From: Escherichia coli | GTDB lineage: Bacteria; Pseudomonadota; Gammaproteobacteria; Enterobacterales; Enterobacteriaceae | DNA length: 64,000 nucleotides | Direction: 5' to 3' (one strand) | Assembly: GCF_030013595.1 (NCBI RefSeq) | Contig: NZ_CP122768.1 | Part shown: piece by piece, positions 16,839 through 20,852 of the stretch | Layout of the letters: each line of letters begins with the position of its first letter | Position numbering within the stretch: the first letter of the stretch is position 1 | Notes under the pieces: model-generated | The model's database searches: none | What the model was told of the DNA's origin: nothing | The model's input: the letters and a program-made list of their open reading frames with translations, nothing else | Made by a program: the position numbers and the translations under genes

Positions 16839-19800
16839 TTAGTCAAACGGCGGTGGGGCCAGCACTTCACGATTACCGTTGTGCCCCTGTTCGCTGACAA
16901 TCCCCTGCGCTTCCATCTGTTCAATAATACGCGCTGCACGGTTATAACCAATGCGGAACTGACGCTGTACGCCAGAAATTGATGCTTTGCGTTTTTCAGT
17001 GACAAACTGCACCGCCTGATCGAACAACGGATCCAGCTCTTCAGCGCCATCGAAACCGCCCGCGCCACCTTCGCTTTCGCTGTCGGAGGTGATGCCATCA
17101 ACATACTGTGGGCGACCACGCGCTTTCCAGTCCTGCACCACGGCATGAACTTCCTGATCGCGAACAAAAGCACCATGAACACGTACCGGCAACGTGGAGT
17201 TCGGCCCAGAGTAAAGCATATCCCCCATACCCAGTAGTGATTCCGCGCCAGCCTGATCAAGAATGGTACGTGAGTCAATCTTACTGGATACGGTAAAGGC
17301 GATACGGGTCGGAATATTCGCTTTAATCAGACCAGTAATAACATCAACCGATGGACGCTGCGTTGCCAGTACGAGGTGGATACCCGCGGCACGGGCTTTT
17401 TGCGCCAGACGTGCTATAAGCTCTTCCACTTTTTTACCTACCGTCATCATCAGGTCGGCAAATTCGTCCACCAACACCACAATGTATGGTTCTTTTTTCA
17501 GCACCGGATGCTGGGCATCCATACTGTCACCCGGCTTCCAGTACGGGTCTGGAATCGGACGCATCATGCGATCGGCTTCAGCAATTTTTTCGTTATAACC
17601 CGCCAGATTACGCACACCCAGCGCAGACATCAGTTTATAACGACGCTCCATCTCGTTAACACACCAGCGCAGCGCGTTGGCGGCATCTTTCATATCGGTA
17701 ACGACTTCCGTTAACAGATGCGGAATGCCTTCATAAACCGAAAGCTCCAGCATTTTCGGGTCAATCATGATGAAACGCACATCTTCTGGCTGTGCTTTAT
17801 AAAGCATGCTCAGGATCATCGCGTTCACCCCGACAGACTTACCGGAACCGGTAGTCCCCGCAACCAACAAGTGCGGCATTTTTGCCAGATCGGCAACCAC
17901 CGGCTCACCGGCGATATCTTTACCCAGCACCACGGTTAATGGCGACGGATTATCGCGGAATTTGGCGTTATCCAAAACTTCGCGCAGATAAACGGTTTGT
18001 CGTTTTTTATTCGGTAACTCCAGACCTACATAGGGTTTGCCAGGAATAACTTCAACGACACGCACCGCCACCGTCGAAAGTGAACGGGCAAGGTCACGTG
18101 ACAAGTTAGAAATACGCGCCGCTTTTACGCCCGGTGCCAGGTTCAATTCAAAGCGAGTGATAACCGGCCCCGGAGAATAATTGACGACATCGGCTTTAAT
18201 ACGGAAATCAGCCAGACGCGCTTCCACCAGGCGCGCCATTTGTTCAAGCGCAAAGGTATCTACCGGCTCCACTTCGCTCGGCGGCGGCGTCAGCAAATCC
18301 AGAGAGGGCAGCGGCGTCGTCGGTTTATGCAACGGACGGCTGTCGCCATTACGCATCAACAGCGGATGAAGCAGGGTATCCTGCGGCTGTGGCGCAACTG
18401 GCTGTTGCGGCTGCTGTGCAACCGGCTGTTGTGGCTGCTGATATTGCTGCTGCGGTGCAACCGGCTGTTGCGGCTGCTGATACTGCGGCTGCGGCGCAAC
18501 TGGTTGCTGCGGCTGCTGATACTGTTGCTGCGGTGCAATCGGTTGTTGCGGCTGCTGTACAGGTTCAACAATTGGCGTAAACAGCGGTTCGTGTGGACCA
18601 TCATCCAGCAACGCTTTCATTGGCGAAAATTCAAAATCATCCAGCGTGAACGGATTCGCCCCAGCCGGTTGTTCGCCGGAATAACGTTGTTGTTGAGTTT
18701 GCGCAAACTGACGAGCCAGTTCAGCCTCTGCCGCAGCATCTGCATCTTCTGCGTTCACGGGCACATCATGTTGATACTGTTCGCCATAGCGTTGCTGCTG
18801 TGTCTGGGCGAACTGACGTGCCAGTTCATCCTGCTGCATCGCATCGATTTCATCATCGTTATACTGATCGCCGGAATCGTACTGATTGCGCTGAGCTTCA
18901 CGGGCTTTTTCTTCTGCCGCACGCTGTGAGGGCAGCTTAATACCGTAAGACGCCAATTCACGACGAGTTGGCACGCGGATACGTTTCGGTCGTGGCAACT
19001 GCGGGCCAATCCCCTCTTTGACCTGCGGACGCGGTCCACCGCTATTTGCCAGACTGAAGACTGGCGCGGCAACGGTTGCGGCAGCCCCCGTCGCCAGTGT
19101 CGCTTTTTTCACGCCAGATGCCAGCGGAGAAACAGCGGCAGCGGCTTCTACTGGAGGTACTGCTGCAACAGAAGGTGCTTTCAGCGAAGATTTGATCGGT
19201 TCTGGTTCTTTAACCGGTTCTGGAATCGGTTGATACCAGGCCGCAAGTTGTTCACGTTCACGGGCTCGCTTCTCTTCCACTTCTTCAAAGTAGTAAAGCG
19301 GCGGACGCGCGGGTTTTGTCTCTTCTACAACGGGTTCAGGCTCCACAACAGGCTGCTGTTCAACAGGTTGCGGCTGTTGGTACAACGGCTCCTGAGCGAC
19401 TGGCTGCTGATAAGTTTGCTCAGTCTGGTATGTAGACTGTGGAGCAAAAGTGGATTGCTGCTCTTCGGCTTGCCAGGCGTTACCTGCCACCGATTGTTCT
19501 GGCGCAGGGGCGTAATACGGCTGTTGCGCAGACTGTTCCGGCGCAGGGGCGTAATACGACTGTTGCGCAGACTGTTCCGGCGCAGTTGCGTAATACGGTT
19601 GCTGAACAGGTTGTTCCGCCGCAGGCGCATAATACGGCTGCTGTGGCTGTACAGGTTGTTGCAGCGGCTCATTATATTGCACTGCAGGCTGCGCATATTG
19701 TGGCTGCTGTGGGTAACCTTCCGGTGCAGGAGCAATAACCGGTTCTCCCGTTTGCGGCCCCGGTACAGGCTGCCAGGCTACTGTAGGTTGTGCAGGTGCA

Positions 19801-20852
19801 ACATCAACAGAGGCAACAGATGGCGTCTGAGTCACAGGTTCAACCGGTGCAGCCCAGCTTTGCGTCGCCGTGGTAGCAGCAGCTGCTACAGCAACAGGTT
19901 CGGTAATTGGCGCACCGTTTAATAATGGATCGTACTCGTCATATTCTGGCTGCGTTGCACGATTGCCCGAAAAGAGGACGTCGTCAGGGTCGGCAGCCAC
20001 ACCGCGTGCAGTGTAGGTAATCTCTTCGTCATCATCCATCCGCTTACCGGAGAACAACGCAGCGTCTGTTTGCCGCCCCATCGGATTAATGAATTTTTCC
20101 GCCAACCGTTTACGACGCGCTAGCGCGCCGCGAAGAATACGAGCACGGCGTGATTCATGCTGTTTGCCGTGATTTTCATCTTCATACTCTTCGTCATCTT
20201 CATACTCATCTTCATCGACCCAGGTATCATCGCGACGGGTACGATTACTGGCGAAGGTGAGAATGTTTAAAATCCAGCCGCCGAGTTTTTCAGCAATGGT
20301 CACCCATGACCAACCGGTGAACAGCGTCAGACCCGCAGCCCAAACGCAGAGCAGCGCAATAGTTCCCCCGCTACTGTGTAGCAGTGGTTGTAGCGTAGTG
20401 CTTAGTAAGCTGCCAATGACGCCACCGGAGGCAAAATACCAGATATCGTCAGCGTTGATTGCCGCCAGACCACAGGAGGTAAGGATGAGCGCCAAAACGC
20501 CAATGATGCGTAGCGAAACGGCAAAATAATCAATGTATTCGTCGCTGGACTGATGACGCCAGGCAAACCAACAACCGCCGACAATAATGACGGGAATGGT
20601 GTAAGCCATCACGCCAAAAATAAAGAACAGCGTATCTGCCAGCCACGCACCGGGCATCCCACCTAAATTATGGATAGGTTCATGCCAGGCCGTTTGCGAC
20701 CAGCTGGGGTCCGAAGGGTTAAAGCTTAGTAAGGCAGCCATCAACCAGACGGCAAACAGGACAATAAGGATCAGCAACGCCTCCAGAAGGCGGCGGCCGC
20801 TACTTAACTTTGTCAATGTGACTTCTTTGTCTTCAGTGTATTCCTGGCTCAA
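16839..20852 (-). CDS. ftsK: DNA translocase FtsK
   Basis: 1337 aa; N-terminal membrane domain, long Pro/Gln-rich linker, C-terminal motor with Walker A GTTGSGKS. Confidence 0.95.
18376..18575. repeat. Imperfect tandem repeats encoding the PQQ-rich FtsK linker
   Basis: Repeated ctgctgcggtgcaaccggctgttgcggctgctgata-like units. Confidence 0.7.
19495..19640. repeat. ~45-bp imperfect tandem repeats in FtsK linker ([13 protein letters not shown] units)
   Basis: Three near-identical units ggcgcaggggcgtaatacggctgttgcgcagactgttcc. Confidence 0.7.

Follow-up and report, generated by a model that had tools for sequence, protein, structure and literature searches.

Two 39-bp tandem arrays of variable copy number in the proline- and glutamine-rich linker of an Escherichia coli ftsK gene

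The ftsK locus

The interval studied here, positions 18376-19740 of a 64,000-nucleotide stretch of Escherichia coli DNA (the window), lies within ftsK. The ftsK coding sequence is the largest open reading frame (ORF) over this interval, as seen from the ORF list and its translation, and its coordinates are given in Table 1 together with those of the other features. All of the 4TM, alpha, beta and gamma domains of an FtsK/SpoIIIE DNA translocase were detected in the 1337-aa product by a Pfam scan, namely FtsK_4TM (PF13491, aa 20-191, E = 5e-42), FtsK_alpha (PF17854, aa 848-948), the P-loop motor FtsK_SpoIIIE (PF01580, aa 956-1169, E = 9e-88) and FtsK_gamma (PF09397, aa 1272-1332). PDB entry 2IUS matches aa 826-1337 of the protein. 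The exact 1337-aa sequence is already present in NCBI and UniRef, where it is named 'DNA translocase FtsK [Escherichia coli]' and is carried by 59 contigs. The gene in the window is therefore E. coli ftsK.

The surroundings agree with this identification. The ftsK region has megablast matches in 5425 of the 5426 complete E. coli genomes and is annotated as ftsK every time. The gene order rarA, lolA, ftsK, lrp, trxB and the TTG start codon are common to all the RefSeq loci that were fetched (9/9), and alignment of these nine loci to the window places lrp upstream of ftsK and lolA and rarA downstream of it. No Rfam family reached its gathering score on either strand between 16500 and 21800. A plasmid-borne relative was also considered and rejected: each of the 11 matches in the plasmid collection is an ordinary ftsK on a record typed as non-mobilizable, of 74 kb to 4.9 Mb, and these records are taken to represent whole or partial chromosomes that were deposited under the label of plasmids.

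Table 1. Positions of the ftsK features in the window (strand and basis of each assignment)
Feature	Position	Strand	Basis or remark
ftsK CDS	16839..20852	-	TTG start; 1337 aa + stop; ORF list, translation, Pfam, RefSeq annotations
Linker-coding region (aa ~192-847)	18312..20279	-	Between Pfam-bounded 4TM and alpha domains
Array A, 39-bp (13-aa) tandem array, ~4.5 units, VNTR ms07/CVN001	18381..18557	-	TRF, repeat search, shuffle test, unit parsing, primers
39-bp unit extra relative to strain HCP5S3_I2	18432..18470	-	Pairwise DNA alignment; placement inside array arbitrary
Array B, 39-bp (13-aa) tandem array, 4 units, VNTR ms06	19488..19643	-	TRF, repeat search, offset-39 scan, unit parsing, primers
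Two-copy duplicate, 105 bp (35 aa) spacing, each copy encoding 14 aa	18681-18727 and 18786-18832	-	47 nt, 81% identity
ms07 reverse primer site	18285-18304	+	One mismatch
CVN001 reverse primer (ECMLV4-R) site	18289-18310	+	One mismatch
CVN001 forward primer (ECMLV4-F) site	18652..18672	-	Exact match
ms07 forward primer site	18798..18817	-	Exact match
ms06 reverse primer site	19375..19394	+	Exact match
ms06 forward primer site	19734..19753	-	One mismatch
Second overlapping ORF, 229 aa	18240-18929	+	Codon-aligned antisense frame
Longest overlapping ORF, 230 aa	19230-19922	+	Codon-aligned antisense frame

Composition and predicted disorder of the linker

The interval encodes aa 372-826 of FtsK, which make up the middle of the linker together with its C-proximal portion. 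Over the whole linker the composition is 13.6% Pro, 14.5% Gln and 13.4% Ala. Within the interval, Pro reaches 15.4% and Gln 19.1%, compared with 5.7% and 3.1% in the remaining protein; the initial annotation had placed the interval in a Pro/Gln-rich FtsK linker, and both the composition and the gene assignment (Pfam domains, RefSeq annotation and the exact NCBI protein) bear this out. Pro and Gln together make up 34.5% of the interval, and the Pro+Gln profile of the linker has two peaks, which coincide with two tandem arrays, here called A and B. In array A the two residues account for 75% of the sequence, while in the stretch separating the arrays the Pro+Gln fraction is only 10-27%.

The linker is probably an unstructured, low-complexity tether, as judged from its composition, from a simple charge-hydropathy estimate and from the lack of solved structures for most of its length. 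Its mean hydropathy of 0.399 lies below the charge-hydropathy boundary of 0.434; for the interval the corresponding values are 0.39 and 0.433, with a disorder-promoting fraction of 0.71. The solved structures of FtsK cover residues 805/826-1337 only, and none extends over aa 192-804. PMC2800217 and the review PMC5357621 likewise describe an E. coli FtsK linker of about 650 aa that is Pro/Gln-rich, is termed unstructured and differs in length among species. The same papers, citing Bigot 2004 and Dubarry 2010 in the case of PMC5357621, state that full chromosome-dimer resolution activity requires the linker, and PMC5357621, again with reference to these two studies, that the linker helps to contact the divisome proteins FtsZ, FtsQ, FtsL and FtsI.

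Two arrays with a 39-bp unit

Periodicity was assessed against 1000 codon shuffles of the interval, taking the best match count per 117-nt window at each offset. At an offset of 39 the interval reaches 100 matches out of 117, a value attained by none of the 1000 shuffles (mean 48.9, maximum 61). The best counts at offsets of 24 (74 matches), 78 (79 matches) and 105 (69 matches) were also reached by 0/1000 shuffles each. A 48-bp period was rejected as not significant, since its best count of 56 is reached by 27/1000 shuffles. Of the imperfect tandem repeats of about 39-48 bp that the initial annotation had proposed, the 39-bp end of the range thus stands and the 48-bp end does not.

The signal comes from two places. 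In an offset-39 scan of the whole ftsK gene only aa 401-459 and aa 762-824 stand out, and Tandem Repeats Finder (TRF) reports a 39-bp period at 18406-18557 (3.9 copies, 86% matches, score 220) and at 19495-19640 (3.7 copies, 85% matches, score 201). It also reports sub-patterns of 24, 18 and 21 bp across 18382 to 18565, on the array A side, and sub-steps of 24 and 15 bp occur at one end of array A. Array A is laid out as three units of QQPQQP[IV]APQ[QP]QY, followed by an 8-aa unit, QQPQQPVA, and a last unit of 12 aa; array B consists of four units of QQ[PS]YYA[PT]A[AP]EQ[PS][VA]. Adjacent 39-bp units are 80-90% identical. The two arrays are real, but with 177 + 156 = 333 bases they take up 24% of the 1365-base interval and lie at its opposite ends, so that, contrary to what had been proposed, repeats do not encode the linker as a whole. 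In the roughly 930 bp that separate them, a repeat search found no tandem repetition and just one two-copy duplicate (Table 1), whose length is constant and whose alignment is gap-free in all ten alleles compared below.

Within array A the peptide is better preserved than the DNA. Across the ten alleles, 25 distinct DNA units encode just 8 distinct peptides, with 843 synonymous versus 338 non-synonymous codon differences. Because synonymous differences are in excess among its units, the comparison hints at some constraint on the peptide motif of array A, and the arrays may be more than an inert spacer.

Correspondence with published typing loci

Array A is the established variable-number tandem repeat (VNTR) typing locus ms07/CVN001, and array B is ms06. 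All six ms06, ms07 and CVN001 primers, with sequences taken from PMC4553163 and PMC11773471, have one match each in the window, with 0-1 mismatch, and converge around the arrays. Both arrays thus combine a 39-bp unit, flanking published primers and a copy number that varies among strains. In the literature, ms06 and ms07 are 39-bp loci of E. coli/Shigella multilocus VNTR analysis (MLVA) and CVN001 is an alias of ms07 (PMC4553163, PMC11773471); one paper assigns the CVN001 locus to the gene ftsK (PMC4553163, PMC11773471). Array A resembles ms07/CVN001 of the Shigella/E. coli MLVA of Gorge et al. and the generic E. coli MLVA of Lindstedt et al. in its 39-bp ftsK unit and in the two primer pairs that bracket it, and it is multi-allelic, as CVN001 is among Swedish ESBL-producing E. 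coli, where alleles of 4-8 repeats were found (PMC5217547). Array B resembles ms06 of Gorge et al. in its 39-bp unit, its primers and its alleles of 2, 3 and 4 units, and the window, with the 4-unit (379-bp) allele, shows no notable difference from that locus. For Shigella sonnei, alleles of 2-4 repeats at ms06 and of 2-8 repeats at ms07 have been described (PMC4553163). These published ranges are in line with the unit counts observed here. Repeats in the ftsK linker and their variability are therefore already known and serve as routine typing markers.

A similar locus exists in another genus. The 39-bp VNTR of Salmonella ftsK is used in typing as STTR7 or SENTR2 (PMC2430564). It shares with array A a 39-bp repeat in the ftsK linker, and two S. 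Enteritidis isolates differ by a natural indel of a 28-aa linker repeat at residues 757-784 (P757-Q784), a site that corresponds to array A in its relative position (PMC6137255). The Salmonella locus has a higher copy number (9.3 in S. Enteritidis), and the two are likened by their published descriptions.

Copy-number variation between strains

We aligned the window ftsK with the alleles of nine RefSeq genomes picked across the BLAST ranking. The ten proteins are 1277, 1324, 1329 (K-12), 1337 (window), 1342 (O157:H7), 1347, 1355 (three genomes) and 1368 aa long. All alignment gaps are confined to the arrays, at window aa 417-442 and 766-812, and the unit count ranges from 0.9 to 7.9 in array A and from 2 to 4 in array B. 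The alleles differ in length only by multiples of 3, and each of the ten is an intact, in-frame gene. This comparison of linker lengths among E. coli alleles agrees with the initial annotation, which had expected the repeats to vary in copy number between strains; what it said about the gene, about the region and about how that region behaves is supported as essentially right.

K-12 FtsK shares with the window protein its TTG start, its domain order and its place between lrp on the upstream side and lolA and rarA on the downstream side, and the ftsK DNA of the two is 97-99% identical outside the arrays. The window protein is 8 aa longer, with four units in array B versus two in K-12 (+26 aa) and about 4.5 units in array A versus 5.9 (-18 aa), one window unit being shortened to 8 aa. 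At the lower extreme, the natural isolate NZ_CP013029 has an intact ftsK of 1277 aa in which array A is down to one unit. Because this isolate keeps an intact gene with a single unit, array A is mostly dispensable for viability in nature.

In-silico amplicon spans were collected from RefSeq complete genomes taken rank-spread by BLAST, a non-random sample whose row counts are not population frequencies. For ms07 the spans were 494 (1 row), 548 (1), 587 (14), 602 (1), 605 (1), 626 (16), 665 (4) and 704 bp (1), and for ms06 they were 301 (19), 340 (20), 367 (1) and 379 bp (19). The window has 379 bp at ms06 and 533 bp at ms07. The latter value is an additional 15-bp step off the main 39-bp ladder (587, 626, 665 bp) and is absent among the 39 fully covered RefSeq genomes sampled.

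Among complete genomes, the nearest are two pig isolates sampled in the UK, whose ftsK shows no mismatch to that of the window but is shorter by a single 39-bp unit in array A. An allele of the window's length was not found among the best 12 of the 5426 RefSeq complete genomes. Against NZ_CM149870, the window ftsK has no mismatch in 3975 aligned bases and a single gap of 39 columns, at gene nt 2383-2421 in array A. The window thus differs from its closest genomes by a single-unit step in an otherwise identical background.

A flexible tether with polymorphic in-frame arrays

Almost certainly, the interval is part of a tether that links the membrane-anchored division domain of FtsK to its DNA-pumping motor and that contains two polymorphic in-frame arrays used as typing loci. 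According to this model, the linker would act as a flexible joint between the two domains, with arrays A and B sitting at its two Pro/Gln-rich peaks. Whole 13-aa units would be gained or lost by slipped-strand mispairing or unequal recombination; such events could proceed in frame because the unit consists of whole codons (39 is a multiple of 3) and neighbouring units are 80-90% identical. The tether would tolerate the resulting changes in length, and the arrays would therefore become polymorphic between lineages.

Tolerance is not the only way to look at this variation. The number of units could act as a tuning knob, with the length of the tether or the number of QQPQQPVAP motifs setting the reach of the motor from the septum or the strength with which the linker binds divisome partners, and with lineages selected for different values. 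The contacts with FtsZ, FtsQ, FtsL and FtsI and the role in dimer resolution that PMC5357621 reports for the linker would fit such a function, as would the better conservation of the peptide units than of their DNA. The alleles also look lineage-stable in our samples, K-12 derivatives having mostly one length, O157:H7 rows another and two ST131-labelled rows a third, and CVN001 is monomorphic in ST131 (PMC5217547). Neutral descent, however, predicts the same stability within lineages. Moreover, viable natural isolates span about 1 to 8 units of array A, array B shows no compensation, and exchange of the alleles that differ by the 28-aa indel in S. Enteritidis left the phenotype unchanged in the single survival assay used (PMC6137255). 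No phenotype data for the E. coli alleles were found in the literature searched. We regard tuning by copy number as unlikely, and the more specific proposal, that the unit number in both arrays is non-neutral and, through tether length or the number of divisome-binding motifs, tunes the timing and reach with which the FtsK motor engages terminus DNA, with lineages selected for different settings, as slightly less likely still.

The single-unit difference between the window and its nearest complete genome could also have arisen in assembly. Assemblers can collapse or expand arrays of about 180 bp, and the two sequences are identical elsewhere. On the other hand, the 1337-aa protein occurs under several NCBI accessions, and the 1324-aa form was recovered from two RefSeq assemblies that are independent of each other. 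As each allele has thus been seen repeatedly, an artefact is improbable, and because 59 public contigs carry it, the 1337-aa allele is not a one-off assembly error.

ORFs overlapping ftsK

Besides ftsK, eight ORFs of 63-230 aa (at least 60 aa being counted) overlap the interval on both strands. The initial annotation had regarded such ORFs as spurious and their number as a product of the repeats. The first part agrees with our data: the ORFs look spurious, having no Pfam matches (0/8), no annotation at their positions in the nine RefSeq records and open lengths that vary among alleles. The second part does not. With ftsK included the interval has nine ORFs, and when the window is cut into tiles of that size, 23% of them contain as many or more (mean 6.6, s.d. 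2.2, maximum 12); the excess is modest and due to the amino-acid and codon composition, not to repetition as such. Stops in the alternative frames number 2.86 per 100 codons in the interval versus 5.15 in the N-terminal part of the gene and 4.13 in the motor. Stops in other frames seldom arise from Pro, Gln, Ala or Glu codons, and the additional ORFs are by-products of this composition.

Could one of these long ORFs nevertheless be a real gene? The two candidates are the 229-aa and 230-aa ORFs of Table 1. Both are longer than antisense ORFs usually are, and their frame, the codon-aligned antisense one, is nearly stop-free, with 1 stop in 455 codons across the interval and up to 330 open codons. 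This openness has a simple explanation, however, because a stop in that frame needs a TTA, CTA or TCA codon on the sense strand, and these are scarce in a Pro/Gln/Ala-rich stretch. The longest open antisense stretch ranges from 244 to 330 codons among the alleles, and the total number of ORFs is inside the normal range of the window. Together with the missing Pfam matches and annotation, this makes an overlapping gene very improbable.

The least credible reading, which the in-frame unit excludes, treats the arrays as a contingency (phase-variation) locus toggling FtsK expression or function: intragenic tandem repeats of strain-variable copy number are a hallmark of such loci, but the 39-bp unit is a multiple of 3, the ten alleles and all span differences keep the frame, and ftsK is an essential division gene, whose off state would be lethal.

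Consequences for annotation and typing

The interval should be annotated as ftsK alone, and the eight overlapping ORFs can be disregarded. Where strains differ in the length of ftsK, this should be put down to VNTR variation at ms06 and ms07/CVN001 and not mistaken for an error or a truncation. Short-read assemblies may get the unit counts in the ftsK arrays wrong. Beyond such annotation hygiene the relevance is small. A minor practical point concerns fragment-size typing: as 15 bp are missing from one of its units, the window allele gives a non-integer repeat call at ms07/CVN001.

Length variants in the ftsK linker and MLVA typing

Typing at ms07 is affected by the 3' end of array A, the array of 39-bp units in the linker of the window's ftsK, where one unit encodes QQPQQPVA and lacks PQQQY. 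Because this unit is cut to 24 bp, the ms07 amplicon, at 533 bp, falls outside the usual 39-bp size ladder, and the allele would yield a non-integer MLVA call. Of the six MLVA primers published for ms06, ms07 and CVN001, three have a single mismatch each to the window allele (sites in 18285-18310 and 19734-19753), none of them at the 3' terminal base.

Minor repeat features of the window's ftsK linker
Feature	Window position	Location or structure
3' end of array A (gene orientation), with the shortened unit	18381-18420	one unit cut to 24 bp
Two-copy duplicate	18681-18727 and 18786-18832	copies 35 aa apart; 81% DNA identity
Third small tandem repeat	20175-20216	N-proximal linker, outside 18376-19740; period 6, 9 or 18 bp

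Alignment of the window's ftsK with those of nine RefSeq genomes showed that the two-copy duplicate, which codes for a 14-residue sequence, has a fixed length in each of the ten alleles. This duplicate could be the sign of a structured or binding element inside an otherwise low-complexity linker. The third repeat encodes an acidic run of 14 residues, and no length variation was seen there across the same ten alleles.

Related and apparent additional ftsK loci

The window's ftsK (16839-20852; compared with NZ_CM149870, 1140-5114) matches the genes of two isolates from pig faeces in the UK, HCP5S3_I2 and LCP30S3_I5, at every base except one 39-bp unit, and the window probably derives from a close relative of these isolates.

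In searches of RefSeq complete E. coli genomes, at least two 'places' were reported for the single-copy ftsK in most genomes; the extra ones are likely off-register alignments of repeat units that were tallied separately, rather than a second locus. Ordinary chromosomal ftsK is also present in eleven PLSDB 'plasmid' records (H173-H183) with lengths between 74 kb and 4.9 Mb; all of them are typed as non-mobilizable, and they look like chromosomes or chromosome fragments entered as plasmids.
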